Source of the DNA: a virus
Reading direction: 5' to 3' (one strand)
IMG/VR virus record: IMGVR_UViG_3300012065_000001
Location: 1 to 55,160 of that record
DNA: 55,160 nt
Translations under genes and position numbers: made by a program
Notes under the pieces: model-generated
Databases searched by the model: none
Told to the model about the DNA's origin: nothing
Seen by the model: only the letters and a program-made list of their open reading frames with translations
Shown: positions 2,514 to 46,136 of the stretch, in pieces
Layout: every line of letters starts with the position of its first letter
How positions within the stretch are numbered: the stretch's first letter is position 1

Positions 2514-3143
2514 ATGTTATACGAGAAAGGATACAAATTTCCGGGTTCGAGATTGACTGTAATTGAGAATATGCCGGTAGACGTTAATGGGAATAGTAAA
2601 GTCCGCTGTTTGTGCGATTGCGGTAACGAATGGATAGGACCGGTTAAGCGGCTTAAAAACGGCGGAACAAGATCTTGCGGGTGCCTGCAACGCGAAGCGG
2701 TGACTTCGCACGGTCAAAGATACACGCCTTTATATAATATTTATACAAAGATGATTGACCGATGCATCAACCCAAAAAATACGAATTATAAATATTACGG
2801 AGAACGCGGGATAAAGGTCTGCGATAGATGGAATCACAATTTCAAAAATTTCTACGAGGATATGCACGAGGGATACCTACCAGGATTGCAGATAGACAGA
2901 ATTGATAATAACAAAGGCTATGAACCGAGCAATTGCCGGTGGGCCACACAAAAAGAAAATGCTCGAAACAAACGAAACAATAATCTTATAGTTATAAACT
3001 GCGAAGTGAAAACATTGCCGGAATGGGCCGAAATAGTTGGCTTGCCATGTAGTACTATCCGCTCCAGGCTTAAGCGTGGTTGGCAGGGCGAGGATTTATT
3101 ATTACCACCAAAAACTACAAACTTATGCCAAGCTAGTTATTAA
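2514..3143 (+). CDS. HNH_3 / homing-endonuclease-like DNA-binding protein
   Basis: Motif IDRIDNNKGYEPSNCRWATQKENARNK, an N-terminal Cys cluster (CLCDCG..CGC), and a C-terminal HTH-like LPEWAEIVGLPCSTIRSRLKRGW. Start at ATG 2514 after AGGAG. Confidence 0.55.
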   Translation: MLYEKGYKFPGSRLTVIENMPVDVNGNSKVRCLCDCGNEWIGPVKRLKNGGTRSCGCLQREAVTSHGQRYTPLYNIYTKMIDRCINPKNTNYKYYGERGIKVCDRWNHNFKNFYEDMHEGYLPGLQIDRIDNNKGYEPSNCRWATQKENARNKRNNNLIVINCEVKTLPEWAEIVGLPCSTIRSRLKRGWQGEDLLLPPKTTNLCQASY

Positions 3144-3251
3144 TAATAGCCTACACCGAACAGGATTAACTAACACCCGGCGGCCTAGCTAACCGCCGGT
3201 AAGTAAGGAATGCGCATTCCTCCGAAAAAAATAATCAAGAGGATGGTTTAG

Positions 3252-3533: not shown

Positions 3534-3880
3534 ACCGTCTAACCATAAAAACCTCCACCGGCTACGATTGGTCAGATTTCGCCAGAGAGATAGCCGCCAA
3601 AGACCCGGATGTGGTCGGGAGGAAGGTTAGGGAGTATGTGGGGGCTTGCGAGGATGCCGGGGTTACGCCGGTGGAAATATCCGCTTTGAAGGCCAAAAGC
3701 GAAAAACTGCTTGACCTACTGAATCGCTTTTATCAGGCGGCAAGTAAAATTGATTTGGCGTACTGTATGTTAGCAGCCGGCGATCATAGTAGCTTATCAG
3801 GTGAGGAATACGAGAGATTGATGGATGTTTTTGTTGAGGTCGAAGAGGTTATACAGGTGAATTATGAAAAGGTGGTCTGA
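3530..3880 (+). CDS. Hypothetical protein (116 aa)
   Basis: ATGA start/stop overlap with the upstream ORF; contains an AGVTPVEI box also seen as TGLTPEQI in the next ORF. Confidence 0.6.
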   Translation: MNRLTIKTSTGYDWSDFAREIAAKDPDVVGRKVREYVGACEDAGVTPVEISALKAKSEKLLDLLNRFYQAASKIDLAYCMLAAGDHSSLSGEEYERLMDVFVEVEEVIQVNYEKVV

Positions 3881-4449
3881 TGGAACAATTAAGTAAAATC
3901 GGTTTTCATGCAGCGCATAGAAAATATAAAGATATTGAAATGTATCACGAGCTTTGCGCTTATCAAGACACCGGCTTAACCCCGGAGCAAATAACCGTTC
4001 TGCAAGCTGAAAATGAACAGTTGGAAGGCGCGGATTTAGCATTGGAATCACTGGTGGTCGAGTATGAACGGCTGAAAGCCCGCCATGAGCGTCTGAGAGC
4101 CCATGCAGAAAAGGCAAAGGCTGAACGAGACGCGGCAGAAAAAGCCTTTCAAGGAGAGATGGGGAGACATCAAGTGGCTGTGGCCAAACTGGATGCGGCG
4201 ATGAAATTCATTGACGAACTACACAGTTTTCTTAAAAACAATCATCCATTCGCTGACACAAATTTGCATACAAGTACCGTGTATCAGATGGTTCTTGATT
4301 GGCTTTGTACTGGCAATGGACATTCCGACGACTACAACCGCATCAAAGCCAAGGCCGAAACCTGGCCGGACTGGAAAAAGGAAACGTATAACGTCAATTT
4401 TGCAACGTCGAAACACGCTAAAAAATTGGAACCGAGGGATAACCAATGA
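3880..4449 (+). CDS. Hypothetical coiled-coil protein (189 aa)
   Basis: TGATG overlap with the upstream ORF; long heptad-like E/K/A/R-rich centre. Confidence 0.6.
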   Translation: MEQLSKIGFHAAHRKYKDIEMYHELCAYQDTGLTPEQITVLQAENEQLEGADLALESLVVEYERLKARHERLRAHAEKAKAERDAAEKAFQGEMGRHQVAVAKLDAAMKFIDELHSFLKNNHPFADTNLHTSTVYQMVLDWLCTGNGHSDDYNRIKAKAETWPDWKKETYNVNFATSKHAKKLEPRDNQ

Positions 4450-7965: not shown

Positions 7966-8355
7966 TTGCCAAATAAACGAGATTTAAAACTTGACAAATA
8001 CGGAATAAGCAAACACAGATACAGAGAGCTATATAATTTTTGTTTGCAATATAAAGAGTTTATCAGAGAAAAAAATAGTTGTTATAGCCTTGACAGTAAG
8101 AATCTTGACGGGATGCCAAGAGGCGGTGGCGTATCGGATACAACGGCCAATAAGGCAGAACGGGCATATAAATTAAGCAAAAACATTGAATTAATAGAAC
8201 AGACGGCTATTGAGTCTAGCGGGGACTTGTATCAATGGATGTTGAAAGCTGTATCAGAAGATTTAACTTGGTACGATCTACAACCGCCATGTGGGCGAAA
8301 TGAATTTAACCTAACCAGGAGGAAGTTCTTCTTTTTGCTGAGTTTAAAAAAATAG
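7966..8355 (+). CDS. Putative ArpU/RinA-like late-gene transcriptional regulator
   Basis: TTG after AAGGAGGTG; located immediately upstream of the packaging module; DGMPRGGGVSDTT..IELIEQTA pattern resembles ArpU-family proteins. Assignment from memory only. Confidence 0.4.
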   Translation: MPNKRDLKLDKYGISKHRYRELYNFCLQYKEFIREKNSCYSLDSKNLDGMPRGGGVSDTTANKAERAYKLSKNIELIEQTAIESSGDLYQWMLKAVSEDLTWYDLQPPCGRNEFNLTRRKFFFLLSLKK

Positions 8356-8805
8356 GTGCTATATAGGACGTCGTTTTAGTTTATTATGTTACTATGGGTG
8401 AAACCCAAGGAGCCAACCTCCCGGCTCCAACATAGTGGGCTATAGGCCCGAAGACAATGAGGTTTGAGCCTCGTATACCAGCCCGAGGTGAACGCGGATG
8501 TGGAGGGAGCGCCATAATGTGCGCTGTGTAGGGCTGGGTTAATATCGACCTCCTTCTAACAGCCCCGGTATATAGGTGATCAGCATGAAAGAGCCCTAGA
8601 ATGTCTAGGGGATGTCTTTCATGATCGCTTGCCGGGGCGTAAAAAATGATATCCTGAGCAGTAAGCGCCTCACGATTCGAGGGTGGGCTGAGGCTTGGGG
8701 TTAAGATATATTGTTCCCGATAGGTCCGCGATGACGGCGGCCAAAAACCGTATGTGCGCACGTACAATGCTTTTTGGTAAGGGTTTGAGGGAGTATAATT
8801 TTAGG

Positions 8806-8879
8806 TATGGGAGCGTTAGCCAAACGGCAAGGCAAAAGCGACGGCTTAGATTATTGGTTCGAATCCGATACATTCCATG
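8806..8879 (+). ncRNA. tRNA-like four-way module with canonical T-arm but no anticodon loop
   Basis: 74 nt. Closing stem 8806-8812/8873-8879; hairpin GCC-AAAC-GGC (8819-8828); hairpin AAGC-GACG-GCTT (8836-8847); T-arm ATTGG-TTCGAAT-CCGAT (8853-8869). Confidence 0.45.
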
Positions 8880-8965
8880 TGGCCGGGTCATTCCCGGATG
8901 AACTGAGCGTTGCGCGCGACACCTCAGAGAGATTGATAAAAATTAAGCGCATAGAAATTAATTTA

Positions 8966-8994
8966 AGGCGATTGCTGAGGCGGTCGCTTTTTTG
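8966..8994 (+). terminator. Intrinsic terminator ending the structured region
   Basis: AGGCGAT/GTCGCTT stem (2 G-U pairs) followed by TTTTTT. Confidence 0.6.
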
Positions 8995-9014
8995 ATGGGA
9001 AAAACAGAGCTCTG

Positions 9015-9686
9015 GTGGTGAGTCCCTTGAAACCATATAAAAATCAAGAAATCATCTTTTCTGCAAACGGAATTCAAAAGCCTGAAAAGCCGGAAAAAGA
9101 GGAAAGACAAAAAATACGATCACGGGGAATAAAAACCAGGGAAACTCAATTCTTCCGACGCTTCAAAAGCGAAACTGAGCTTGAAAATATTATAGATTGG
9201 GATATTGAGCTGGGCTGCGCATATCATGTTATTTCCGGTGGTGACATTGACAGCCTGTCTTTCCTGAAATTCATCCTCCGGCAGCAGCCATTGAAATATT
9301 GCATCTTGTCTACTTGGTGTATGGCGTTGCAGGATATTGAGGAATTAGAACGATATTTAAGCCTTGGACGCATCCAGAAGTTGGATTGCTATGTAGACGA
9401 AATTTTCAAAGGCTCTTATAAAAACGAATGGATTCGATTATGTGAAGTCATGCAGAAATACAATGGCAGAGCAGCGATATTCCGGAATCATTCAAAGATA
9501 TTCGTGGGATTTGGCGATAAATTTGACTTTGCGATTGAAAGCTCTGCCAATATTAATACTAATCCGCGAACGGAAAACACGACAATTACAGCCAATTCTG
9601 AGTTGGCTTATTTTTATAAAGAATTTTTTGACGGGATAGTTAGTTTTGAGAGAAATTTTGATGGATGGAAGCCGATTAAAGTGTAG
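9015..9686 (+). CDS. Hypothetical protein with a single PLD/HKD-like nuclease motif
   Basis: HSKIFVGFGDKFDFAIESSANINT resembles the HxK..(G/E)SxN box of NgoFVII/BfiI-type PLD nucleases. The GTG start is poorly supported. Confidence 0.45.
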   Translation: MVSPLKPYKNQEIIFSANGIQKPEKPEKEERQKIRSRGIKTRETQFFRRFKSETELENIIDWDIELGCAYHVISGGDIDSLSFLKFILRQQPLKYCILSTWCMALQDIEELERYLSLGRIQKLDCYVDEIFKGSYKNEWIRLCEVMQKYNGRAAIFRNHSKIFVGFGDKFDFAIESSANINTNPRTENTTITANSELAYFYKEFFDGIVSFERNFDGWKPIKV

Positions 9687-9694
9687 GTGATGAA

Positions 9695-10300
9695 ATGGCA
9701 AGGTTAACAGATAGACAGGAAAAATTTGTACAGGAGCTTGTCAAATACAAAAGTCAAAGAGAGGCGTATAGAATCGCTTACCCAAAGTGTAAATCATCCG
9801 ACAAAACGGTTGATGAAATGGCAAGCAGATTGTTTAACAGTGCCAAGGTATACGCAAGGTATAATGAGCTTCACGACCGGTTGATAAAAGAAACCGAAGA
9901 TGAATGCATCATGACGGCAAAAGAAGTTTTAAAAGAGCTTGAATATATGGCTAAGGATGATGTTAAAAATTATCTTTCCTTCCGTACTGAAAAGACAGTT
10001 GTTGGCAATGACGGCGATGGTAACCCAATCGCGGCCTATGATACTATCGTTGATCTGAAAAACAGTGATGAAATAGACACCCGGAATATATCCGAAATAT
10101 CGAAAGGCCGGGACGGGCAGTTTAAATTTAAGCTATACGGAAAAGATAAGGCGCTTGAGTTGTTGGGCAAGCATCACGGAATCTTTATCGAAAAGGTTGA
10201 AATCTCCAAGGCGACCAATGAAACCATAGAGGAAATAGAAAAGTATGTGATGGCTAATGACAACGGAACAGAAAAAATACATAGACCTTCTCCTGAATGA
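9695..10300 (+). CDS. terS: Terminase small subunit (Terminase_2 / P27 type)
   Basis: N-terminal LTDRQEKFVQELVKYKSQREAYRIAYPK HTH pattern; immediately upstream of and overlapping TerL. Confidence 0.85.
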   Translation: MARLTDRQEKFVQELVKYKSQREAYRIAYPKCKSSDKTVDEMASRLFNSAKVYARYNELHDRLIKETEDECIMTAKEVLKELEYMAKDDVKNYLSFRTEKTVVGNDGDGNPIAAYDTIVDLKNSDEIDTRNISEISKGRDGQFKFKLYGKDKALELLGKHHGIFIEKVEISKATNETIEEIEKYVMANDNGTEKIHRPSPE

Positions 10301-11516
10301 ACCGGCAAAAATCGGTCATTGGCTGGGATTTACGAAACTTAATGATCTAAATAACGAATGGATAGTATCGTTTCTGAGGGCCAAAGAAGACCAGACCTTG
10401 CAAGCCCACCGAGGCAGCTATAAAACGACCTGCTTGTCAATCGGAATCAGCGAACACATGGTTTTATTCCCAAACAAAAACATCATCTTCCTACGCAAAA
10501 CCGATGATGACGTGACCGAAATCATTAACCAAGTTCAAAAGATACTCGCCGGTGAAGTCTTTGCTTTCCTGACCGAAAAAATATATGGCCGGCCAATCAA
10601 GCTGGCAAGATCTAATTCAAGCGAAATCACAACCAATCTTGTTTCATCTGCCCGCGGCTCAGTCCAGCTTTTAGGACTTGGGACCAAGGGAAGCTTGACC
10701 GGCAAGCATGGCGATCTGATTATAACTGACGATATTGTCAATTTGCGTGATAGGATAAGCCGAGCCGAACGAGACTATACCAAGCAAGTATACCAGGAGT
10801 TGCAAAACATAAAAAATCGCGGCGGCAGGATGATTAACACCGGCACGCCATGGCACCGCGATGACGCATTCTCTTTGATGCCGAATATTAAGCAATATGA
10901 TTGCTATTCTACCGGCCTCATGACGCGGGAGGAAATCGAAGCGCAGCGGGAAGTATTGACACCCTCCTTATTTGCTGCCAACTATGAGTTGAAGCATATT
11001 GCCAGTGAGAACGCGCTGTTTGCCACAAGCCCGAAATTCACAACCGGCGACGAATTGCTATATAACGGCATAGCCCATATTGACGCTGCATATGGCGGCG
11101 AGGACGGCAGCGCCCTCACGTTGCTTAAAAAGACGGATGCAGGCATATATGTACTGGGAAAACTGAGAAAGAATCATATTGATAACTGCCTTGACGAATA
11201 CCTACTTATCAAGAAACGGTATCGCTGCGGCGTGATTGAGGTGGAAAGCAATGCTGACAAGGGCTATCTGAAAAAAGAAATTATTCGCCGCGGTGACATA
11301 GCCCGCGAATACCACGAGAGCATGAACAAGTACATCAAAATTTCAACATATCTCAAGAAATACTGGAAGCAGCTTATTTTTCTTGAAGACACCGATCCGG
11401 AATACATTAACGAGATTATGGACTATACGGAGGACGCGGAACATGACGATTGCCCGGATAGCTTGGCGTCACTGCTTCGAAAAATAGATGGTGGCCCGAT
11501 GATTCGGGGCGCGTAG
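10257..11516 (+). CDS. terL: Terminase large subunit
   Basis: 419 aa. Walker-A-like AHRGSYKTT, Walker B DLIITDDI, nuclease-domain NTGTPWHRDD; positioned between TerS and portal. Confidence 0.85.
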   Translation: MTTEQKKYIDLLLNEPAKIGHWLGFTKLNDLNNEWIVSFLRAKEDQTLQAHRGSYKTTCLSIGISEHMVLFPNKNIIFLRKTDDDVTEIINQVQKILAGEVFAFLTEKIYGRPIKLARSNSSEITTNLVSSARGSVQLLGLGTKGSLTGKHGDLIITDDIVNLRDRISRAERDYTKQVYQELQNIKNRGGRMINTGTPWHRDDAFSLMPNIKQYDCYSTGLMTREEIEAQREVLTPSLFAANYELKHIASENALFATSPKFTTGDELLYNGIAHIDAAYGGEDGSALTLLKKTDAGIYVLGKLRKNHIDNCLDEYLLIKKRYRCGVIEVESNADKGYLKKEIIRRGDIAREYHESMNKYIKISTYLKKYWKQLIFLEDTDPEYINEIMDYTEDAEHDDCPDSLASLLRKIDGGPMIRGA

Positions 11517-11532
11517 TCAGAGGTGATATAAT

Positions 11533-13083
11533 TTGCAAGTATCGGAAATGGACGTTATAAATGCCAAAATCGAATTCATGGGACGCGGACGGTCTATCGT
11601 AGAAATACTCAAGACGATATTGGACGAATGGCGTAATCGCGAAAAAAAACAAATCATTATAGATATGCATGACGCCGACGAATATTATATGTGTCGCAAT
11701 GTCACCGTGTCCCAGAAGCGGCGAGATTTATCTGGGCATGGCGAAAATAATACGCTTTCGAATGTAAAAATTAAGTCTGGTCATGTACGAACAAATGTCG
11801 TGCAAAAGAGTGACTATGCACTTGGTAAGCCGTTCATTGTCAGCGTGGAAAGCCCGATACCAAAGACGGTTGACGAACAGGGTAATCCAATAGAAGACCC
11901 GCAGGCCGCAATTTATTTAGATGAGTGGTCGAAATATCTTTCCCCAGCCCGCAGGAAAACGATCAAGCGCATCGGCAAACATGGTGCAATTAATAAAGGC
12001 ATCGGCTGGGCTTATGTCACCATAGACCAAACTGAAGACCTTTTGTTACAGTATGTGGATTCTAAAGAACTATATCCTGCATGGGCCGATATAGAACATA
12101 CTATGCTTGATGCAATTGTCCGGGATTACAAGGTCATTCAGTATATTAATAATAACCGCGAGGAAATCAACAAAGTTGAGTTTTGGGACAAAGAACTCGT
12201 AGCGCGATTTGAGGATAAGGGCCATGCGGCATTAACTCCCGACCCTGATTACCCTCAGTCCATGGCTCATATGGATCAATCCGGCAAAGGTATCGCGTGG
12301 GGTCGAGTGCCGTTTATCGCCTTCAAAGGCAACGAAGACGAGCTGCCGATACTAAATATTATACGCTCACAGATTGATAGCTATGATAAATTGCAAAGCA
12401 AGTCCACTGATGCACTACTAGACGATATTGACCCAGTATTAGTGCTTGAGGGTTTTTCTCCTGAGTTGGGCGATTTGATTGAACAGCGCCAAATTATGCA
12501 AAATTCACGCATTGTAGCTATTGAGCGGGATGGCAAAGCATATTACGTGCAAGTCAGCCCTGACGTTACGGCAGTGCAGGCAAAGCTTGAAAGTTTAAAA
12601 AAAGATATCAGAGAATTCGGCATGATGGTCATGTCGCAGGACGATGACATGACGAGCAACCCATCGGGTGTGGCGCTCAAATTTCGATATCAAGACCTAG
12701 ACACCTACACAAACGGCCTTGAAACTGAGTTTGAAGTGTTTATGCAGCAACTCAAATACTTCTTCGATATCTGGTTGGAGTTTCGCAAAATAGGAACAGC
12801 CGAACAATGGGCACAGTATAAATTGATTGTCACGCTGGACCGCGATATGATGATTAATGTGTCGGCCGATATCGAAGATACGGTTAAACTTGGGTCCACT
12901 GGCGTATCTCAAGAGACTCTCGACAACTGGAATCCTGCCGTCGAATCGCATGAGGTGGAGCAAGCCCGCCGCGAGAAAGAGCAACAATCAGCCCTATCCG
13001 ACATGAACACAGAGCGCGAACTTGCAAGGCTGAGAGAAGAAAACGAGCGGTTGGCGCGGGAGCGGGAGGGCGAACAAAGTTAA
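11533..13083 (+). CDS. Portal protein (SPP1 gp6-like)
   Basis: 516 aa; follows TerL; N-terminal ..DADEYYMCRNVTVSQKRR.. pattern of SPP1-type portals; acidic/coiled C-terminus. Confidence 0.9.
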   Translation: MQVSEMDVINAKIEFMGRGRSIVEILKTILDEWRNREKKQIIIDMHDADEYYMCRNVTVSQKRRDLSGHGENNTLSNVKIKSGHVRTNVVQKSDYALGKPFIVSVESPIPKTVDEQGNPIEDPQAAIYLDEWSKYLSPARRKTIKRIGKHGAINKGIGWAYVTIDQTEDLLLQYVDSKELYPAWADIEHTMLDAIVRDYKVIQYINNNREEINKVEFWDKELVARFEDKGHAALTPDPDYPQSMAHMDQSGKGIAWGRVPFIAFKGNEDELPILNIIRSQIDSYDKLQSKSTDALLDDIDPVLVLEGFSPELGDLIEQRQIMQNSRIVAIERDGKAYYVQVSPDVTAVQAKLESLKKDIREFGMMVMSQDDDMTSNPSGVALKFRYQDLDTYTNGLETEFEVFMQQLKYFFDIWLEFRKIGTAEQWAQYKLIVTLDRDMMINVSADIEDTVKLGSTGVSQETLDNWNPAVESHEVEQARREKEQQSALSDMNTERELARLREENERLAREREGEQS

Positions 13084-13107
13084 GGCTATACGAAAGGCGG
13101 TCTTGAT

Positions 13108-13350
13108 ATGGCAAAGTATGTATTGCGTGGAACCCTATATAACACTCGAAAAATGAAACGTCTATGCAGTGATATTACCTTTAATTTATATATCGCAAAT
13201 GATGGAACGTTTATAGAAGAAGCAACATTTTGGGGTATTTCTTTGGGCAATGCAAGAATTGTAAACGAATCATATGCTAAATTTCAAACTGGAACATATG
13301 GGAAATGGAGTATTTATCAAAAAATATGGGGATATGTTCCGGAAGATTAA
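13108..13350 (+). CDS. Hypothetical protein (80 aa), inserted between portal and gp7-like gene
   Basis: ORF with SD AAAGGCGG; no recognisable motif. Confidence 0.5.
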   Translation: MAKYVLRGTLYNTRKMKRLCSDITFNLYIANDGTFIEEATFWGISLGNARIVNESYAKFQTGTYGKWSIYQKIWGYVPED

Positions 13351-13431
13351 ATCATATTTTCTTGATGGCTGCACTTATCTTTATCACTCGTCCTCCGGCG
13401 GGATTATGCTTGAAAGGGTGGGGAGAAATGC

Positions 13432-13460
13432 TTGCATATGAGTTTCTCCGATGATATAAT
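13432..13460 (+). promoter_or_regulatory. Sigma-70-type promoter of a moron cassette
   Basis: TTGCAT - 17 nt - TATAAT. Confidence 0.6.
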
Positions 13461-13485
13461 TGGTAAATGAAAGGCGGTATTGATT

Positions 13486-13716
13486 ATGTTTGAAGAAGCA
13501 AGGGCAAAGCTTAAGATAATACTGAATGATGAACCTGAATATGACAGATTAACAAATCTATTCGATTCGGTTCAGAATATTTATGGCAGACAAGCCGAAG
13601 CGGAATATTTAGATACGGTTTCCTCTATAGCACTGACGGGATTTGATACGCGCCAAATAAAAAGCATTGAATCTTTAAGAGGAATTTATTGGGCAGTATG
13701 CAAAATTAAAGCATAA
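13486..13716 (+). CDS. Hypothetical protein (moron ORF)
   Basis: ATG 13486 after GAAAGGCGG (track starts at TTG 13480); flanked by its own promoter and terminator. Confidence 0.55.
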   Translation: MFEEARAKLKIILNDEPEYDRLTNLFDSVQNIYGRQAEAEYLDTVSSIALTGFDTRQIKSIESLRGIYWAVCKIKA

Positions 13717-13740
13717 AAATTATACTAAACTGCTAATCAG

Positions 13741-13767
13741 GCGTTCATCAAAAGATGGGCGCTTTTT
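13741..13767 (+). terminator. Intrinsic terminator
   Basis: GCGTTCATC-AAAA-GATGGGCGC stem-loop plus TTTTT. Confidence 0.8.
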
Positions 13768-13889
13768 AATACCCTGAAAGGTGGTGACGCTCCATTTCAA
13801 TACTTAAAAAATCGAAAGAATCCCAAGAGCGTTACTGGTCGGAGCGTGCCGAGCGTGTCATCCTCGCCGCCGAAAAGACCAGCGAAGAA

Positions 13890-14876
13890 ATGACCGCCAA
13901 CCTCGCAAAAACATATAGGGAAACCCAAAAGGCCATACAGAAAGAAATCGAAAGTTTTTACGGGAAATACGCCCGTGATGTCGGCGTATCCCTCGAAGAT
14001 GCCCGGAGGGCGCTTAACAAAACAGAATTAAAGGCATATTTAGAGCAAACAAAAGAATACTATGCCGCTATTGAGGCCACAAATTATGCCTTCGACCCCG
14101 CCTACCGCCAAAAGCTACACCGGCAGCTATCCCTCAAATCAGCCGTGAGCCGGTTGGAAGCATTGCAAGCGGATGTGCAGTGGAACGTGGAGAAATTGTA
14201 TGCCCAGGAGCAGGATGCGTTTAGGGAGGGCTTGAGCGGTACATATGAGGACGCTTATTACCGGACGGTTTTCAATATCCAACAGGGAGTAGGATTCGGC
14301 TCACCGTTTTCAACGCTGAATGTAGAAGCCATAGAAAAAGCCGTATCACAGAAATGGCTTGGCGCGAATTATTCCGACCGCATTTGGACGGATAAAGACC
14401 GGCTGACTATCGCTATGGGGCAGATTATTCCGCGAGGGATTGCATTAGGGCAGAATCCGCGCATTATCGGCAAAGACATATCCGATCAGTTAGGTGTCCG
14501 GCGGTCTTATGGGGAGCGGTTGGCAAGAACGGAGTTTTCGCAAATAGCAAACGAAGCGTCATTTGATGCCTACAAAGAAGTGGGAATAGAATCATACCAA
14601 TATCTTGCAACCTTAGATCATAGAACTTCTGAAATATGCCAAGACCTTGACAATAAGGTGTTTGCGCTGTCTGAAAAGATGGTGGGGGTCAACTTCCCTC
14701 CGGCGCACCCGAACTGCCGGAGTACGACAATCCCGTTCTTTCCAGAGGATGAAATTGATAGAATGTTTGCAAAATCAGAACGCATAGCCCGCGACCCCAA
14801 AACAGGGAAATCATATCTCGTATCGGCAAGTATGACTTATCGGGAATGGGCGAAAGAAAGAGGGATAAAACCTTGA
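13890..14876 (+). CDS. Head morphogenesis protein (SPP1 gp7 / Mu F family); real N-terminus probably at ATT 13794
   Basis: ..ESFYGKYA.., C-terminal PPAHPNCRSTTIP box. The frame is open back to 13788, and the extension (ESQERYWSERAE) looks like a genuine gp7 N-terminus. Confidence 0.9.
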   Translation: MTANLAKTYRETQKAIQKEIESFYGKYARDVGVSLEDARRALNKTELKAYLEQTKEYYAAIEATNYAFDPAYRQKLHRQLSLKSAVSRLEALQADVQWNVEKLYAQEQDAFREGLSGTYEDAYYRTVFNIQQGVGFGSPFSTLNVEAIEKAVSQKWLGANYSDRIWTDKDRLTIAMGQIIPRGIALGQNPRIIGKDISDQLGVRRSYGERLARTEFSQIANEASFDAYKEVGIESYQYLATLDHRTSEICQDLDNKVFALSEKMVGVNFPPAHPNCRSTTIPFFPEDEIDRMFAKSERIARDPKTGKSYLVSASMTYREWAKERGIKP

Positions 14877-16600: not shown

Positions 16601-17422
16601 ATGGCAATTAACTTTGCAGAAAAATACAGTGATCAAGTAGATGAGCGCTTTACAAAAGCCTCCGTTACGCAGAGTGCATTTAATCAGGATTTGGATTTCA
16701 CCGGCGTGAATACCGTAAATGTTTACAGCATTCCCACTGCGCCCATGAATGATTATACTATGGCGGGAGATAACCGTTATGGTACACCTGATGAACTTGG
16801 TGACACAGTACAGACCTTTCCACTGACGCAGGATAGAAGTTTTACATTCACGATTGATCGCCGGAACTACCTTGATACCATGATGGTGAAGGAATCTGGC
16901 CGTGCCCTACGTCGGCAGCTTGACGAGGTTGTGATTCCTGAGGTCGATAAGTACAGGATTTCCATTCTTGCGGCTAATGCGGGGAACACCTCAACCCCGG
17001 CCCCGATTACCGGAGGGAATGCCTATGAAAGCTTTTTGAAGGGCGTGGAAACCCTGCTTGACAACAAGGCTCCCACCGCCGGAACCTTCGGATTTATCTC
17101 CACCGGATTTTATCGCTACATCCGTTTGGACACAGCGTTTATCCAGGCGTCCGACATGGCGCAGGAAATGCTAGTTACCGGACAGGTCGGCATGATCGAG
17201 AATATCCCGATCATTTTCATTCCCCGAAGCTATATGCCCGCCAGTGTTGAGTTTATGCTTACAAACCGTATTGCGGCATGGGCGGCACAGAAAATCGCTG
17301 ATTACAAAATCCATGATAACCCTCCCGGCATTAACGGCTGGCTAATTGAGGGCAGAATCTATCATGACTGCGGAGTGTTCCAGAATAAAGCGCCTGCTAT
17401 ATATGTTCACAAATCCGCGTAG
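16601..17422 (+). CDS. Major capsid protein
   Basis: 273 aa; strong SD AAAGGAGA; N-terminal NFAEKYSDQVDERFTKAS pattern; positioned after the scaffold. Confidence 0.8.
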   Translation: MAINFAEKYSDQVDERFTKASVTQSAFNQDLDFTGVNTVNVYSIPTAPMNDYTMAGDNRYGTPDELGDTVQTFPLTQDRSFTFTIDRRNYLDTMMVKESGRALRRQLDEVVIPEVDKYRISILAANAGNTSTPAPITGGNAYESFLKGVETLLDNKAPTAGTFGFISTGFYRYIRLDTAFIQASDMAQEMLVTGQVGMIENIPIIFIPRSYMPASVEFMLTNRIAAWAAQKIADYKIHDNPPGINGWLIEGRIYHDCGVFQNKAPAIYVHKSA

Positions 17423-17433
17423 GAGGTGAGCGT

Positions 17434-17697
17434 GTGAAACTCACAAAAAATGGAGTAACCTATGATGTGATGGACGAAATCCAGATCAGCGCATTCCGAA
17501 AAAGCGGATACAGGCCTGTGAGCGAGACAGAACCGGAGCAGGGGGAAACCCTTGCTCCTGCTGTTTCGGAAGAATCCACGGATTACAACGACATGCCCGA
17601 TGAGCAACTTGCCGCCCTTGCCGCCGAAAGGCAAGTTGATGTTGATGGAAAGACGCGGCGGCAGGTTATTAATGCGCTTAAGAAAGCCGAGGTGTAG
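17434..17697 (+). CDS. Hypothetical protein with Rho-N/SAP-like C-terminal helix pair
   Basis: MPDEQLAALAAERQVDVDGKTRRQVINALKK. Confidence 0.55.
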   Translation: MKLTKNGVTYDVMDEIQISAFRKSGYRPVSETEPEQGETLAPAVSEESTDYNDMPDEQLAALAAERQVDVDGKTRRQVINALKKAEV

Positions 17698-17700
17698 ATT

Positions 17701-17865
17701 ATGGCCTTATCTGAGCTTTCAAAGTTACAGGTTATTCAGAAACGTCAAGAACAGACGGCAAAGAAGCTAAATCCTGAGCCCGAAAATGTACCTATAAAAA
17801 AGAAAAAATCAATTTTTGCGCCGGACGATGCGGAGGCGGTGACGGATGAAAAATATATTCCATAA
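17701..17865 (+). CDS. Small hypothetical protein (54 aa; below track cutoff)
   Basis: ATG 17701 directly after the upstream stop; open to TAA 17863-17865. Confidence 0.4.
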   Translation: MALSELSKLQVIQKRQEQTAKKLNPEPENVPIKKKKSIFAPDDAEAVTDEKYIP

Positions 17866-39347: not shown

Positions 39348-39893
39348 ATGCCTTACGATATGAGGAACCTCGGCAATCCCGGAACTGAGCCTAAAAACAT
39401 GGGCGAACTCCTTGAATGCATTGATGAAATTTTGCTTCATAACCTCATGTTTAATGACAAGGCAATGAAGAATTGTCATGCTATGGGATTCAATGGATAT
39501 AAACGTATGCACAGATGGAATGCAAAGAAATTTTTGTGCTGGCATATCGACCTTGAGAACGAAGCTTATGACAAATACCGCATGACGCTGGAAACCAAGG
39601 CTGCAGATTTTGATTATAACCCTAGCGATCTTATAAGCCATTTGCAGAAATGGGACATGAAACTCGGTGAAGATATAAAGGCGCTCGGACGTTACAATAA
39701 TATGTATCGCGAATGGTCCGGCAAAGATAACTGCGTAATTGACGCTGCCTTAGCTTGTATGGTTAAAAACTATGAAAAAGCTGGGCGCTGGTACAAGCGC
39801 TTTATGGAAACCAAGTCTATGCACGATATGCATGATTTGGACGATACACTTCACGCAAAATACAAGGCCATGGAAGAGGCTGCCGGGCATTGA
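39348..39893 (+). CDS. Helical (ferritin-like?) hypothetical protein (181 aa)
   Basis: Helix-rich; GFNGYKRMHRWNAKKFLCWHIDLENEAYD is vaguely ferritin/Dps-like. Unassigned. Confidence 0.55.
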   Translation: MPYDMRNLGNPGTEPKNMGELLECIDEILLHNLMFNDKAMKNCHAMGFNGYKRMHRWNAKKFLCWHIDLENEAYDKYRMTLETKAADFDYNPSDLISHLQKWDMKLGEDIKALGRYNNMYREWSGKDNCVIDAALACMVKNYEKAGRWYKRFMETKSMHDMHDLDDTLHAKYKAMEEAAGH

Positions 39894-39914
39894 GCTGGAA
39901 AAAATTACTGATAA

Positions 39915-39943
39915 AAAAGACTGGATGTTCAGTCTTTTTTTTG
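39915..39943 (+). terminator. Intrinsic terminator
   Basis: AAAAGACTG/CAGTCTTTT stem plus T-run. Confidence 0.85.
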
Positions 39944-39992
39944 ATTTTTCAGGCAGGGCATGGTAAAATATTGGAAAAAGGGAGGGTGTTTT

Positions 39993-40358
39993 ATGAGTGC
40001 CAAAAATGCAGTAATAGCAGGAGATTATGAGGGCAAAGGCATAATAATATTGCGAGGGTTTCCGGAAAAGGTCGCGATAATATTAAAGGCATTCGGCAAG
40101 GATGGCAAAATAATACTTGATAAGACAGCGATAGAAAATTATGAGGTAGTCACAGAAGAATCAAGTAAAAGTGCGTCAAGCGCTATCGCAAGAGGGGCGA
40201 TGGGCGGTTTTCTTTTGGGCCCAATTGGATTGCTTGCAGGAATTTCTGCGAAAAATAAAAATTCTCATACCGTAGCGATACAATTTAAGGATGGAAAGAA
40301 AAGTCTAATTGAGGTTGATGGCAAAATTTATAAAGCGTTGATAAAGGAGTTATTTTAA
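39993..40358 (+). CDS. Hypothetical membrane-associated protein (121 aa)
   Basis: ATG after GGGAGGG; central GAMGGFLLGPIGLLAGI hydrophobic segment; bounded by terminators on both sides. Confidence 0.55.
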   Translation: MSAKNAVIAGDYEGKGIIILRGFPEKVAIILKAFGKDGKIILDKTAIENYEVVTEESSKSASSAIARGAMGGFLLGPIGLLAGISAKNKNSHTVAIQFKDGKKSLIEVDGKIYKALIKELF

Positions 40359-40371
40359 ACACGGGAATACG

Positions 40372-40397
40372 CCCGCCCTAGTCGGCGGGTTTTTATT
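40372..40397 (+). terminator. Intrinsic terminator
   Basis: CCCGCC/GGCGGG stem plus TTTTTATTT. Confidence 0.8.
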
Positions 40398-40420
40398 TGC
40401 GAAAAATATTGAAAAAAGTA

Positions 40421-40449
40421 TTGACAAGATACACAATGCAACATATAAT
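40421..40449 (+). promoter_or_regulatory. Consensus sigma-70 promoter
   Basis: TTGACA - 17 nt - TATAAT (perfect hexamers). Confidence 0.75.
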
Positions 40450-40470
40450 AATATTAAGATACAAAAGGAG

Positions 40471-40647
40471 GTGAACATCATTGCTGAATGGATAACGGAA
40501 AAAGAATTGTGCGAATGGCTAAAAATCCAACGGGTAACAGCTTATCGTTGGCGAAAAGAAGGAATGCCTTACATTGGGCAACGAAAATCCATTCGTTACA
40601 ACAAGGAAGAAGTTGAAACGTGGTTTAAATCCAGAAACAAAGAATAG
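40471..40647 (+). CDS. Excisionase-family (MerR-like) HTH protein; likely initiates at ATT 40480
   Basis: Below track cutoff. ..WITEKELCEWLKIQRVTAYRWRKEGMPYIGQRKSIRYNKEEVETWF matches the Xis-type HTH. The perfect SD AAAGGAGGTGA (40464-40474) contains the only canonical start (GTG 40471). Confidence 0.7.
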   Translation: MNIIAEWITEKELCEWLKIQRVTAYRWRKEGMPYIGQRKSIRYNKEEVETWFKSRNKE

Positions 40648-40761
40648 CCGTATCCCCGACCAAGAGAACAACGACTATTCCGGCACAAAGGAATCCCTCT
40701 GTAAATCCAATTATACTACAGACGAACTCCTTAATCAAATTATTTTAAGGAGGTTTTTTAT

Positions 40762-41016
40762 TTGAAAATTGATTACGCAAATTACGTTCGGAGTACAAAA
40801 GAAAAGGAAACCGATGAGCTTATAATCCAACAAGCCTGTACCGATATCAAGGCCGCATTAAAAGCGGCTGGTGTACATGGCAAAGTTAACGTCGAATACT
40901 ACAAAGATGCCGCGCTCGTTATGCTGGATGGCAAATATTACAATATGTTTAACTACGAGACAAAAATGTTTTTTAAGGGTTCAGTCGGCGATTACGGGCC
41001 ACTAGAAGAAAGGTAG
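40762..41016 (+). CDS. Hypothetical protein (84 aa)
   Basis: TTG after AAGGAGG. Confidence 0.5.
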   Translation: MKIDYANYVRSTKEKETDELIIQQACTDIKAALKAAGVHGKVNVEYYKDAALVMLDGKYYNMFNYETKMFFKGSVGDYGPLEER

Positions 41017-41049
41017 GGGCGCGTGGATGGTAGTTAAGAACATGGGCTA

Positions 41050-41076
41050 AAACGCACAAGGCCGGCAGATCACCCG
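41050..41076 (+). terminator. Intrinsic terminator (first of a tandem pair)
   Basis: GCCGGC/GCCGGC stem plus TTTTT. Confidence 0.7.
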
Positions 41077-41139
41077 CCGGCTTTTTCCTTATCCCAAAAT
41101 ACGTCTATAGGGATTCCCATGGACCCCCGCCTGACAACG

Positions 41140-41181
41140 CCCGCCGGCAACAGCCCGAAGCTCGTTGCCTGGCGGGTTTTT
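41140..41181 (+). terminator. Intrinsic terminator (second of the tandem pair)
   Basis: 12-bp stem CCCGCCGGCAAC/GTTGCC(T)GGCGGG plus TTTTT. Confidence 0.8.
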
Positions 41182-41294
41182 ACACGTAATGTGCTTGTAA
41201 AAGCATATAATTTCTGCGAATCACACGTCTTGTCTGTTTACATTGGTGTACCAGCATGGTATACTTATATCATAAACAAGGGGAGGTAAACAAG

Positions 41295-41723
41295 ATGACA
41301 ACCAGGCAAAACAAATATTACAAAAAGGGCCAAGAACTGGCCCAACAGTACGAAACAGAATTTGAAGGCTTCCGGGGCCTGGTCCGGAAATTGGTCGAGG
41401 AGAACGAATTCGACCTACTGGATAGTCTAGAAAGCGGTTTCCCGACCAACGACCTCTGGCTGTGGGCAGGATACCGCGGATATGAGCCAGAATATAAAAC
41501 GGCTCAGAGGTTTGGAAGGCTCCCCGAGAACGGAAGAAGCAGAAACCACGCTGATAACACGCTGGAAAATGGCGTATCGGTAATAGGCTTTGGAAGCGAA
41601 TCCAGCTTATACGATGTGATTCTAGGCTGGCAAGGGATTGAAAAAGTAAATGTTTCGGGTTGGTATTTGGGCCAACGCGGATCAGATGGGGAACCATTAC
41701 TGGTTGATTGTAAAGAAGTATAA
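41295..41723 (+). CDS. Hypothetical protein (142 aa)
   Basis: ATG after GGGGAGG; RNHADNTLENGVSVIGF ... GSDGEPLLVD. No family assigned. Confidence 0.6.
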   Translation: MTTRQNKYYKKGQELAQQYETEFEGFRGLVRKLVEENEFDLLDSLESGFPTNDLWLWAGYRGYEPEYKTAQRFGRLPENGRSRNHADNTLENGVSVIGFGSESSLYDVILGWQGIEKVNVSGWYLGQRGSDGEPLLVDCKEV

Positions 41724-41747
41724 ACTATATAATAAGGAGAGAACAAA

Positions 41748-42128
41748 ATGACAGCAACAGAAATTATCCAGACCATAGATAACACAAATTTCCGATTCTA
41801 TGGAATCACTTCAAGGGACGCAAAATATCAGGTTGGCGATGACAACCTTGAACAGTCTTTCTATTGGGTTCCGACAGAAGGAAGAAAAACTGAGGAATAT
41901 ATAGGTGGGGTGTGCGCCACTAGGATAGACACCACATTCTGTGGCTGTTGCGAAGTAGACGAAAGAGCCATCGCGGCTGTGGAAGAAGCTCTCAAAACAA
42001 ACAACAGATACGGATGTGACCATCAATATTTGCTGGGATCGGACTACCTGGTTGATGAAACCGTTGAAGCAGATGACCCCGGCGAAATCATTTTGGACGA
42101 GCCGGTTGTACTTGCAATCATAAAATAA
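41748..42128 (+). CDS. Acidic hypothetical protein (126 aa)
   Basis: SD AAGGAGAG; GGVCATRID ... DDPGEIILDEPVV. Loosely parallels the preceding ORF. Confidence 0.6.
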   Translation: MTATEIIQTIDNTNFRFYGITSRDAKYQVGDDNLEQSFYWVPTEGRKTEEYIGGVCATRIDTTFCGCCEVDERAIAAVEEALKTNNRYGCDHQYLLGSDYLVDETVEADDPGEIILDEPVVLAIIK

Positions 42129-42242
42129 AACAATTTGGTTCCCGGCCAACCAGAAAACCGGGGGAGAGGGAGGAAATCATGAGAATTTTATCAAACATGG
42201 AAGCACGGACTATACCTATGAAATAATAAAGGAGTGGTAAGC

Positions 42243-42440
42243 ATGATAATGAATGAAAGAGATTACACTGATACGGTTAGATTTAAAGAGCAGTGCGAAC
42301 AATTAATGAAAGCAGGCATTTCAGAAAAAGATTTGCTTAGATATAAGGAATTACATAAGCAATTTGATATATGGGGAAACGAAAAAGGCACAGATTATTC
42401 AAAAGCAGTAATTGCTTATGATACATCTAAGCTTGGATAA
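42243..42440 (+). CDS. Hypothetical protein (65 aa)
   Basis: ATG 8 nt after AAAGGAG. Confidence 0.5.
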   Translation: MIMNERDYTDTVRFKEQCEQLMKAGISEKDLLRYKELHKQFDIWGNEKGTDYSKAVIAYDTSKLG

Positions 42441-42492
42441 TAAGATTGGGAACCGACCCCGGCGGCTAATCCGGGTAGAAGGAGGAAATAGT

Positions 42493-42753
42493 ATGAATAT
42501 AAATACAGAAAAATTAAAAATCGGCTTTGAGCCGAAGCGGACAACCGCCTGGGGGCAAGACCTCCCTGAAAATACAGACATAGGGTGGTACACCCTGTCG
42601 GTGTCTGAGGATGGTCAATCCTCGGCTGGCTACTTCGGTGATAGCACTGAGAGGCATTATGCCTTCCGGAGAAGGCTGGTTGATGGGATTTTACAGGAGC
42701 AATCCTATGGCTATGGACAGGGCGACTTTTGGAATGAATGGGGGCCAGTATGA
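42493..42753 (+). CDS. Hypothetical protein (86 aa)
   Basis: ATG after GAAGGAGGA. Confidence 0.55.
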   Translation: MNINTEKLKIGFEPKRTTAWGQDLPENTDIGWYTLSVSEDGQSSAGYFGDSTERHYAFRRRLVDGILQEQSYGYGQGDFWNEWGPV

Positions 42754-43827: not shown

Positions 43828-43918
43828 AAGTCAGCAAAGGGCAAACTTACCGAAAGGCAGGGGCGCAAAACTACGGGCCTAAAATCACTATGATCATGGC
43901 AGCCGGTTACCTACTTTA
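43828..43918 (+). promoter_or_regulatory. c-di-GMP-I (GEMM-I) riboswitch aptamer
   Basis: AAGGGCAAAC..CCGAAAGG..GGGGCGCAAAACTACGGGCCTAAA..GGCAGCCGGTTACC closely tracks the GEMM-I consensus / Vc2 aptamer (GGGCAAACC..GAAAG..GGGACGCAAAGCC.CCGGCCTAAA..GGTAGCGGGGTTACC). Confidence 0.8.
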
Positions 43919-44063: not shown

Positions 44064-44126
44064 TATACTAAAGTACCGAACAGATTTTCGAATTACATAC
44101 TAAAGGAGCTCAGGAGGTTGATTTAC

Positions 44127-44405
44127 ATGGAAAATGTTTTAACGTTAGACAGGTTAGAGATAGAGAATAAAAATGAAGAGGATGTAAATAACCTTGCTGT
44201 GGAAATGTTGAGGGAGGTTTGTAAGGGGATGGGGATAAAAGTATTTGAAATCCCAGAGGTAAATAAAACGTCCGTAAAATTTATTAAGCGGGAAAATGCC
44301 ATCGCTATTTATAGCAACGCAACCAGCACACATATAAAGGTTATGTTAGATATCATTTCCCACATTATACCCACAAAAGTTTTAGATGGAATCATTTCGG
44401 CTTAG
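44127..44405 (+). CDS. Hypothetical protein (92 aa), last gene before attP
   Basis: ATG 44127 lies 10 nt after AGGAGG. Confidence 0.55.
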   Translation: MENVLTLDRLEIENKNEEDVNNLAVEMLREVCKGMGIKVFEIPEVNKTSVKFIKRENAIAIYSNATSTHIKVMLDIISHIIPTKVLDGIISA

Positions 44406-44487
44406 TTGCAAAGTGCCTCAAAATGGCGTAAAATGGTGTTTGTTAAACGCAGATGATTTGCAGTAAGCGATATGCCAAGACCCGGAG

Positions 44488-44516
44488 GGTCGTAGGTTCG
44501 AATCCTACTCGGGGAG
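44488..44516 (+). other. tRNA 3' fragment (T-arm plus acceptor 3' strand): probable attP core
   Basis: GGTCGTAGGTTCGAATCCTACTCGGGGAG = T-stem GTAGG / loop TTCGAAT / CCTAC plus a 7-nt acceptor strand. No matching 5' half upstream. Adjacent to the integrase gene. Confidence 0.7.
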
Positions 44517-44551
44517 CTGGAGCCCGCATAAAAAGCGGATCGAAGTGGGAA

Positions 44552-44580
44552 CAAAAAAAGTGGAAAATTTGATTTCCCAC
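44552..44580 (-). terminator. Intrinsic terminator of the integrase transcript
   Basis: On the - strand: GTGGGAAA-TCAAA-TTTTCCAC followed by TTTTTTT. Confidence 0.7.
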
Positions 44581-44596
44581 TTTTTTCCCACTTTAG

Positions 44597-45761: not shown

Positions 45762-46136
45762 TCAATCCTTTCTATATTTAGTTTTCAAAAGATCAATAAA
45801 ATATTTTAATTCCCCCTGCGCCTCATCCGGTAGTTCGAGAATGTCTTTTATGGTAGATGATATTTCCTCATCGTCCAATTGAGGTATAATATTTCCGGTT
45901 TCCGCATCAATACCAATTGCGATATCTTCTTGCTGTTCTTCCCAGCCCATGAGATAGATAGGGGATACATTCAGAGCGTCGGCAAGAGCATGGATGGTTG
46001 ATCGTTTCAAATTCTTGACTGTGCCTTTTTCATACTTCTGTATCGCAGCCTTTTTGACGCCTATCTTCATGCCTAATTCTTCTTGGGTATAGCCCATTGA
46101 ATTTCTGAGTTCTTTTATCCTATTTCCGATATTCAT
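45762..46136 (-). CDS. CI-like repressor (XRE-family HTH)
   Basis: IKELRNSMGYTQEELGMKIGVKKAAIQKYEKG; divergent from the cro-like gene. Confidence 0.85.
   Translation of the reverse strand: MNIGNRIKELRNSMGYTQEELGMKIGVKKAAIQKYEKGTVKNLKRSTIHALADALNVSPIYLMGWEEQQEDIAIGIDAETGNIIPQLDDEEISSTIKDILELPDEAQGELKYFIDLLKTKYRKD

Follow-up and report, generated by a model that had tools for sequence, protein, structure and literature searches.

The locus discussed here resembles, in different respects, several systems that have already been described. The 6S RNA of phage lambda, the terminated product of its Q-PR'-tR' module, is 194 nt long, and Stx phages bear tRNA and toxin genes near the late promoter PR'. 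tRNA-like elements that act as 3'-processing handles are known from the MALAT1/mascRNA type, and stable RNAs that are co-transcribed with phage tRNA clusters include species 1 and 2 of T4. The functional small RNA StxS of Stx phages, 74 nt long, is a processing product of the terminated PR' transcript (PMC7547250). ROOL and GOLLD are large multi-helix prophage RNAs of unknown function that are often encoded next to tRNAs or tRNA islands (PMC12286853, PMC5737381). In this work we examine an interval of 659 nt without an open reading frame (ORF) on the + strand of a viral genome of 55,160 nt (IMG/VR record IMGVR_UViG_3300012065_000001; this whole stretch is referred to as the window). The interval (8356-9014) is flanked by a 129-aa ORF (7966-8355) and a 223-aa ORF (9015-9686).

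The interval is most likely a non-coding RNA of ~600 nt that lies between a late promoter and a terminator. We favour, with a probability of roughly 0.55, the reading that this is a promoter-terminator interval of the Q-PR'-tR' type whose length has grown about ten-fold through an RNA cargo cassette. The initial annotation of this DNA had offered three options for the interval: ROOL or GOLLD, a new class of RNA, or, for the late operon, a long leader of the antitermination type. The last of these fits best because there is a promoter box at the 5' end, a terminator before the late genes and the same layout in distant relatives; the antitermination itself is deduced from this layout.

Related loci were retrieved by their flanking proteins from IMG/VR, Logan/ENA/JGI/NCBI and JGI metagenomes, and nhmmer was run over all loci. 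Only three variants of the RNA, 87-100% identical, were found in all of the collections searched, and the three near-identical copies all stem from one metagenome sample series. The L003 type is 87% identical to the window over the whole interval. The L002/L031 type is 96% identical up to ~8814 and then diverges; it has ~220 nt encoding a 59-aa hydrophobic ORF in place of the tRNA-like module described below, followed by the same terminator. The large domain of the RNA moves as a unit with different 3' partners (window/L003 versus L002/L031). The 59-aa ORF (L002 ~3880-4060, L031 1530-1709) lies between the large domain and the terminator, has a good Shine-Dalgarno sequence (GAGGTGA) and, placed within the promoter-terminator interval, resembles a moron-like small membrane protein. 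The idea that the RNA stands out from its flanks in conservation was considered and rejected, as there is just a mosaic boundary at ~8365. The long gap after a regulator homologue in L007 was also rejected as unrelated, being AT-rich with small ORFs.

Putative promoter, terminator and putative regulator

The features that bound the interval are the following.

7966-8355, + strand: regulator candidate of 129 aa (phrog_11237), all-alpha, directly 5' of the late promoter
8354-8387, + strand: candidate late promoter region, with box AGGTGCTA (8354-8361), GGACGT (8366-8371), a 10-nt spacer and the -10 hexamer TATTAT (8382-8387)
8387-8395, + strand: second -10-like element TGTTACTAT, read from the sequence, with the hexamer TACTAT at 8390-8395
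8968-8993, + strand: intrinsic terminator, 8-bp stem GCGATTGC/GCGGTCGC, loop TGAG, then T6; dG -11.9
9015-9686, + strand: first late gene; 223 aa with the GTG start at 9015, 219 aa with the TTG start at 9027; phrog_16945 'endonuclease'

The motif GGACGT-N10-TANNAT occurs once at 0 mismatches in the 55-kb window (8366-8387). It also occurs once 3' of the regulator gene in L005, L037-L042, L047 and L050-L053. The form GGACGT-N10-TA(T/A)(T/A)AT is likewise present once in the window and once, in the corresponding position, in every relative checked that has at least 65% identity and a contig that reaches past the gene. A second box, (A/G)GGT(G/A)(A/C)(C/T)A, sits 4-5 nt 5' of the GGACGT box. In alignment A5 conservation extends up to the -10 hexamer, and complete divergence follows directly after it. 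On these sequence grounds the GGACGT box and the -10 at 8382-8387 are best read as the single late promoter, with a predicted transcription start at ~8394 +/- 3. An extended -10 had initially been proposed at 8387-8395; a -10-like hexamer is present there, but the hexamer at 8382-8387, with its conserved upstream box, is the better promoter candidate. Similar duplicated -10-like hexamers are carried by several relatives, and the second element could serve as a tandem promoter or else as a sigma-dependent pause element.

The terminator, previously placed at 8966-8994, was borne out at 8968-8993. With the start at ~8394, the promoter-to-terminator RNA would measure ~600 nt, where ~590 nt had been estimated before. 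The terminator ends 33 nt 5' of the first late-gene start if this is TTG 9027, the start given by public gene callers in the ENA/Logan contigs. A consensus terminator scanner did not list 8968-8993 and our own scan gave the dG of -11.9; our guess is that the scanner missed it due to an upstream A-tract that extends the stem into the T-run. Between 8993 and the first late gene there is no candidate second promoter and no room for one, so the late genes would be reached by read-through. In the L002 variant the terminator is kept via pair-preserving changes despite a different cargo and a different downstream gene. The minimum free energy (MFE) fold of the window RNA contains an alternative long helix (8917-8927 with 8975-8987) that competes with the 5' arm of the terminator; this helix is absent from the L002 variant.

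The same arrangement recurs where the regulator homologue is more distant (35-50% identity). At least 12 distinct loci have, after the stop codon, a conserved box, a TATTAT or TATAAT -10 (often joined by a second -10-like hexamer) and a strong intrinsic terminator, which lies 45-150 nt after the end of the regulator gene. The conservation of this layout suggests that the phrog_11237 family marks a Q-like late antitermination switch. The distant loci, in which these elements lie 0-150 nt after the regulator homologue, are L008, L009, L011, L060-L063, L068, L070, L076, L085, L086, L090 and L101, and many come from human-gut assemblies. In closer relatives a conserved terminator with compensatory changes is found 1.2-1.35 kb after the promoter and is followed by an int-alpA RNA.

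The 129-aa protein matches phrog_11237 (1.8e-20), a family of unknown function. The initial annotation had called it 'ArpU-like', which Pfam, NCBIfam, PDB and Foldseek did not confirm; its AF2 model has a pLDDT of 82.6 and gave no significant match in Foldseek. By analogy we propose that the protein is a late activator or a Q-like antiterminator, and the case for Q-like action comes from the layout and not from family membership.

The interval contains no credible gene, as had been stated initially, and its sequence is almost certainly that of a non-coding RNA. Its ORFs have no match in Pfam or PHROG. For the 127-aa minus-strand ORF, a search of 5.8 billion predicted proteins gave no homologue, and in the natural variant L003 a 38-nt indel shifts its frame. 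The 62-aa + strand ORF that is reported by ENA/Logan gene callers differs from L003 by 4, 7 and 4 substitutions at codon positions 1, 2 and 3, which is not the pattern of a coding sequence; a search with its product returned the known L003-type variant and one fragment only. An intact ORF across the interval, named in the initial annotation as the sign of a protein-coding region, was not found in the homologues, whose indels and substitution patterns speak against coding.

Folded domain, tRNA-like element and other structures of the genome

The interval folds better than expected from its dinucleotide composition. Against dinucleotide shuffles, the fold z of the whole 659 nt is -4.4 on the + strand versus -2.6 on the - strand, and that of 8394-8808 is -3.3 versus -2.0. 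A genome-wide fold scan of 133 segments of 415 nt gave a background mean z of -0.49 (standard deviation 1.46), and the two segments that cover the interval (z -4.7 and -3.8) ranked 4 and 7 of 133. The GC content of the interval is 52% versus ~40% in its flanks. The helices listed in the initial annotation were all found within 1 nt of their coordinates. For CCTCG/CGAGG the pairing segments are present (8469-8473/8484-8488), but the MFE fold favours other partners for them. The duplicated box GGTTTGAG is present at 8461 and 8782. The structural features of the RNA are listed here from 5' to 3'.

8395-8537, + strand: 5' domain, with hairpins 8395-8407, 8409-8428, 8436-8450 and 8457-8474 and a composite arm 8478-8537 (MFE and centroid folds)
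8396-8406, + strand: helix GGGT/ACCC, read from the sequence
8409-8428, + strand: helix GGAGCC/GGCTCC, read from the sequence
8508-8525, + strand: helix AGCGC/GCGCT, read from the sequence
8562-8638, + strand: long composite hairpin whose base (CCCCGGT/GCCGGGG) is conserved and whose tip varies
8563-8569/8631-8637, + strand: helix CCCCGGT/GCCGGGG, which encloses CATGAAAGA/TCTTTCATG and CCCTAGA/TCTAGGG
8651-8726, + strand: central helices 8651-8701 (enclosing 8664-8689) and 8705-8726 (MFE)
8727-8806, + strand: 3' part of the large domain, poorly constrained, with the palindromic hairpin GTATGTGCGCACGTAC (8746-8761)
8810-8877, + strand: tRNA-like element, RF00005, 39.5 bits (gathering score 29)
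8883-8927, + strand: two small hairpins, CCGGG/CCCGG (8883-8897) and CTGAG/CTCAG (8903-8927), read from the sequence

The first hairpin of the 5' domain begins 1-2 nt from the predicted 5' end of the RNA. The 5' domain is ~97% identical between variants (4 differences in 148 columns) and both stem substitutions retain pairing. In the long composite hairpin (8562-8638) the distal 38 nt are deleted or replaced in L003 and the base helix is retained; replacement of a tip while the base stays is typical behaviour for an RNA hairpin. The L003 stem substitutions at 8658/8694 and 8659/8693 also retain pairing, and over 8394-8700 this is true of all stem substitutions outside the replaced tip (6/6). 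By inspection, CCUCC stretches are exposed at 8547-8559 and 8415-8422. The stretch GACCUCCUUCUAA resembles the 3' end of Firmicute 16S rRNA (the anti-Shine-Dalgarno sequence), and the purine-rich segments GGAGGGAG (8501-8508) and GAGGGAG (8787-8793) could be pseudoknot partners of the CCUCC stretches.

Four nucleotides 3' of the large domain, the tRNA-like element begins. A tRNA-shaped module had been noted at 8806-8879, and this was supported by the RF00005 match at 8810-8877, but ARAGORN called neither a tRNA nor a tmRNA in the interval and the anticodon arm is defective. The element has an intact acceptor stem, an intact D-arm with its GG and an intact T-arm (GGTTCGAATCC), and the determinants of the tRNA elbow can be read from the sequence (U8, D-loop GG, TTCGAAT T-loop). 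The anticodon arm is, by inspection, AAGC-GACG-GCTT, a 4-bp stem with a 4-nt loop; the Rfam alignment has 9 nt here in place of 13 in the model. A functional decoder has a 5-bp stem and a 7-nt anticodon loop, which 8810-8877 lacks; given the stub arm and no call by ARAGORN, the element is tRNA-like and not a tRNA. CCA is not encoded. The L003 element scores 48.4 bits against RF00005, and its acceptor and T stems are perfectly Watson-Crick; its truncated arm is identical to that of the window. The two elements differ by three substitutions, all in stems, and the one acceptor mismatch of the window is not present in L003.

The whole window was searched against Rfam 15 at gathering scores, and 8300-9100 was searched against all 4227 families at E<=10 with permissive filters. 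The first scan gave two matches, the tRNA at 8810-8877 and a c-di-GMP-I riboswitch at 43830-43914. The second gave, beyond the tRNA, only three chance-level matches. Neither ROOL (RF03087) nor GOLLD (RF01998, whose model has a conserved 3' region) gave a covariance-model match at the gathering score or at E<=10, and there was no Rfam match to HEARO/omega RNA, raiA, OLE, group I/II introns, RNase P, 6S or tmRNA, nor, in 8300-9100 at E<=10, to any riboswitch, T-box or leader family. The suggestion of ROOL or GOLLD is therefore unsupported, the Rfam search (HEARO, raiA, tmRNA and introns included) having returned the tRNA match alone beyond chance level. Sequence searches for homologues were equally negative. 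BLASTN of the interval against GenBank phages and PLSDB plasmids gave no match, and the extra matches of exact-pattern scans in IMG/VR (four) and GTDB genomes (one) were all due to chance, without extended similarity. A covariance model (R1) of the 5' domain matched only itself in 372 kb of related loci. A large screen for viral csRNAs reports short motifs only, none of which can be related to this element (PMC10690425).

The interval opens the late region of a temperate phage that encodes an integrase and a CI-like repressor in the window. The genes after the first late gene include the following, with an SPP1-type portal further on.

9695-10300, + strand: TerS (Pfam Terminase_2)
10257-11516, + strand: TerL

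The portal and a Mu-F protein suggest headful (pac-type) packaging. The host is probably a Firmicute/Clostridia-type bacterium and not E. coli. At the right end, 54089-54541 of the window is 97% identical to the start of a related contig (L025 1-453, its left end), and public contigs of the same phage have 54,974-55,127 nt; the window is thus essentially one complete, circularly permuted phage genome. The initial annotation had described a genome that is tightly packed apart from the interval. The gap itself stands, but several other intervals near the lysogeny module (39.8-44.8 kb) fold even better. Two further apparent gaps (13083-13890 and 40358-41221) hold small + strand ORFs.

Other structured elements were observed outside the late region. 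The c-di-GMP-I riboswitch aptamer (RF01051, 68.7 bits, E 2e-11; 43830-43914, + strand) is found in the accessory/lysogeny region 5' of a 95-aa ORF (44118-44405) that has no Pfam match, and the surrounding 415-nt segment has a z of -5.5. The strongest fold z in the genome, -6.3, is that of the 415-nt segment starting at 44406. At 44470-44590 (+ strand) there is a look-alike of the 3' half of a tRNA, with a long variable arm, a T-arm (GTAGG-TTCGAAT-CCTAC at 44492) and an acceptor 3' strand, followed by a hairpin with T-runs. It adjoins the integrase (44597-45757, - strand) and the CI-like repressor (45762-46136, - strand) and probably forms the attP core with which the phage integrates into a class II tRNA gene. 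Values of -3.6 to -5.2 were also obtained for 415-nt segments at 1-415, 39841-42745 and 17431-17845, with no Rfam match at the gathering score; some of these overlap ORF-poor or short-ORF stretches (17422-17846, 40358-41221).

Relatives, proposed mechanism and rival explanations

The slot behind the promoter holds different inserts in different relatives. In L005/L050 there is nothing between the promoter and the first gene, which starts ~45 nt after the promoter; L005/L050 also carry an endonuclease-like gene, a 600-nt ORF-free island and the int-alpA RNA. In L039/L040/L053 the slot holds an ORF-free island of 1.4-2 kb with a tRNA-Ser(UGA), a tRNA-like element with an encoded CCA and at least five T-arm hairpins, and L038 has a 245-nt leader and a Cys-rich small ORF. 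None of these inserts resembles the window RNA in sequence, and the int-alpA RNA also shows no model similarity to it. The window cassette can be regarded as one of several alternative, mostly non-coding cargoes, and as accessory rather than part of the switch, because relatives with the same promoter have no cassette or another RNA cargo.

Several details of these inserts were observed. The island of L053 (2570-3980; the same contig as L039, also L040 and L041) is 1.4 kb long, GC-rich and ORF-free. Its tRNA-Ser(UGA) lies at 3682-3765 and its CCA-bearing tRNA-like element at ~3127-3203, and its T-arm hairpins (GGTTCGATTCC-type) are 30-230 nt apart. This tRNA-like minihelix array has no Rfam match except weak tRNA ones, and BLASTN gave no match for the relatives' island. 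The int-alpA RNA (RF02996, 52.6 bits) is found at L005 5001-5070, L050 4501-4570 and L049 4988-5057, directly after a conserved intrinsic terminator (ACGCTTTACC-loop-GGTAAGGCGT, T4) and just before the next late gene. This position is unexpected, since the motif is named for integrase/alpA neighbourhoods. Every relative other than the window (L047, L050-L055; for example, L053 ~1995-2043 and L054 ~1720-1770) has one copy of a conserved nested hairpin (ATGCGGAACAGGGCAG...CTGCCCGGATGGCCGCAT) that the window does not have. It follows either the first late gene or, immediately, the transcription start, and its inner loop and stem differ in L054/L055.

In the favoured reading, a regulator-dependent late promoter (boxes AGGTGCTA and GGACGT; -10 at 8382-8387) would start an RNA at ~8394. 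This RNA of ~600 nt would end at the terminator at 8993 unless the polymerase had been made terminator-resistant, and the late genes would be made upon read-through only, presumably aided by the 129-aa protein. The cassette would consist of the folded ~410-nt domain (8395-8806) and the anticodon-loop-less tRNA-like element (8810-8877). Since this element lies directly 3' of the large RNA, cleavage by RNase P would set the 3' end of the latter. RNase P/RNase Z would cut the tRNA-like element and free the ~415-nt domain as a discrete, stable RNA, and the 5'-terminal hairpin (8395-8407) may shield it from 5' exonucleases. By analogy, a trans-acting accessory role for the freed RNA is the most attractive guess, because of the StxS precedent and the context that is shared with ROOL and GOLLD (prophage, tRNA-adjacent). 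A specific autonomous function of the RNA is a tentative proposal, held with much less confidence than the layout.

Several observations weigh against the favoured reading. The L002 variant is without the tRNA-like element, which is thus not essential to the large domain. With three variants as similar as these (87-100% identical), covariation is not significant: 2 double-sided changes were counted, and 99/500 shuffles scored at least as high. The downstream coding genes are at least as well conserved as the RNA, whose conservation therefore gives no evidence of purifying selection. In 8700-8806 most of the L003 and L002 substitutions break MFE pairs, and this part would be either mis-folded by the MFE model or unconstrained. 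The 129-aa protein has no match in profile searches of Pfam, NCBIfam or PDB and no detectable similarity to any Q family or to another regulator. The promoter has no canonical -35 and could be activator-dependent and not constitutive, in which case the analogy with lambda, where the RNA is made in lysogens, fails. Lastly, a terminator near the promoter is missing in three close relatives, L047, L050 and L053.

Other explanations of the interval must be weighed against this one. A stand-alone, 'ornate' phage RNA of a new class comparable to ROOL and GOLLD, for example an RNA-only assembly or an RNA that modulates the host or its defence, for which the position behind the promoter is just a convenient site of expression, overlaps with the favoured reading and is a possible but doubtful alternative. 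A length of 0.4-0.6 kb, many helices, multi-helix junctions and a GC content of 52% versus ~40% would suit such an RNA, as would the movement of the large domain as a unit with different 3' partners and the presence in a prophage of an adjoining tRNA-like element, as for ROOL and GOLLD (PMC12286853, PMC5737381). Against a class speak the missing Rfam match, the failure of the 5'-domain covariance model to find anything in the 372 kb of related loci and the lack of any diverged homologue in IMG/VR, JGI metagenomes, Logan/ENA, GTDB genomes, GenBank phages and PLSDB; conserved nucleotides or pseudoknots are not definable from three variants. In its most extended form, which we consider speculative to a similar degree, the ~410-nt domain would found a new class of large phage RNAs whose expression is driven by a PR'-like late promoter, possibly already in the lysogen. 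RNase P would release them at a fused tRNA-like handle that has no anticodon, and they would act on the host in trans, say on translation or on tRNA-targeting defence, or in the form of an RNA assembly. The promoter-terminator interval of this phage group would then be a dedicated launch pad for non-coding cargo, and large RNAs, T-arm arrays, tRNA-Ser and int-alpA RNA may, with equal reserve, be counted among its cargoes. A rather unlikely account, less probable than a new class, is that of evolutionary debris in a recombination-prone slot, in which a decayed tRNA gene (anticodon arm deleted) and insert remnants make up a functionless leader transcript. The hypervariable slot has a mosaic make-up, in relatives it houses a genuine tRNA-Ser along with several partial tRNA-like pieces, and the RNA is no more conserved than the neighbouring genes; additionally, the acceptor mismatch of the window is not in L003, and 8700-8806 evolves fast without preserving its pairs. 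Decay leaves unexplained that the fold excess is in the top few percent of the genome, that a hairpin base was kept through replacement of its tip and that the tRNA elbow determinants (U8, D-loop GG, TTCGAAT) are intact, and it sits poorly with a truncated arm that is identical in two variants differing elsewhere.

The terminator directly before the late genes, the helix 8917-8927/8975-8987 that competes with its 5' arm in the MFE fold and the c-di-GMP-I riboswitch elsewhere in the same phage could point to a cis-acting leader (an attenuator, a riboswitch-like sensor or a put-like antiterminator RNA) that decides on read-through at 8968-8993. This is improbable, as L002 keeps the terminator without the competing upstream segment, relatives that share the promoter do without this RNA, no riboswitch, T-box or leader family is matched and a dedicated regulator gene lies directly upstream. 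A DNA-level element before the terminase genes (pac/cos or a protein-binding region), with the hairpins as incidental inverted repeats, is very improbable. It would account for the position directly 5' of the endonuclease-like gene, TerS and TerL and for the perfect-type palindrome GTATGTGCGCACGTAC, but not for strand-asymmetric folding, for a tRNA-like element inside the interval or for a promoter and a terminator that bracket it, and relatives with homologous terminase genes are without the interval. The SPP1-type portal and Mu-F suggest headful packaging, and in headful phages pac is usually in or near terS. Membership in ROOL, GOLLD, HEARO, raiA, tmRNA or the group I/II introns is suggested by context only (prophage, tRNA-like neighbour, 0.4-0.6 kb) and almost certainly does not apply, given that cmscan of 8300-9100 against 4227 Rfam 15 families at E<=10 gave the tRNA and three chance-level matches and ARAGORN gave no tmRNA.

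If the enlarged late-switch interval that we favour is correct, the phrog_11237-like family, previously uncharacterised and present in phages of several environments, among them the human gut, would be the marker of a Q-like late switch in phages that are probably of Firmicute type. Late-gene control in many uncultivated phages could then be predicted from the promoter box and the promoter-proximal terminator, and the promoter-terminator interval would be a slot in which phages park non-coding RNA cargo. StxS shows that by-product transcripts of this sort can turn into RNAs that modulate the host. A folded RNA of 0.4-0.6 kb with a tRNA-like handle would be a much larger case of the StxS kind and a candidate for a problem of the ROOL/GOLLD type. 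With its three near-identical copies the RNA is very rare, and this puts a comparative proof beyond reach for now.

Comparison with known systems

Like ROOL and GOLLD, the window RNA is encoded in a temperate phage and adjoined by a tRNA-like element, a context that does not by itself confer membership. It differs from the ROOL model (~580 nt, six multistem junctions as well as three pseudoknots) in that its core has ~410 nt and no model match, and from both families in that it is found in three near-identical copies only and has no demonstrated conserved pseudoknots or oligomerisation. The tRNA-like element resembles MALAT1/mascRNA and T4 species 1 and 2 in its intact acceptor/T-arm elbow, its defective anticodon arm and its position directly 3' of a larger structured RNA. 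It is missing in L002, and it could equally be a decaying tRNA gene. The int-alpA RNA and the tRNA-like islands of the relatives have no sequence or model similarity to the window RNA, and they share with it the slot, the strand and the non-coding character.

The comparison with the Q-PR'-tR' switches of lambda and the Stx phages has differences as well as parallels. The transcript here would measure ~600 nt, versus 194 nt for lambda 6S and 74 nt for processed StxS, and it is highly structured and has a tRNA-like element. The 129-aa regulator is unlike Q-lambda, Q21 and Q82 in that it has no similarity to them (Pfam, NCBIfam, PDB, Foldseek), and it may be Q-like without being a member of these families. 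The host is probably of the Firmicute/Clostridia type, unlike that of lambda, and antitermination here is putative. The parallels lie in the layout. As in lambda and the Stx phages, a regulator gene lies directly 5' of a single late promoter with a conserved DNA box and an intrinsic terminator is placed between this promoter and the first late gene. A discrete untranslated RNA would arise as a by-product and the late genes would need read-through. Additionally, as in the Stx phages, cargo is tolerated in the promoter region.

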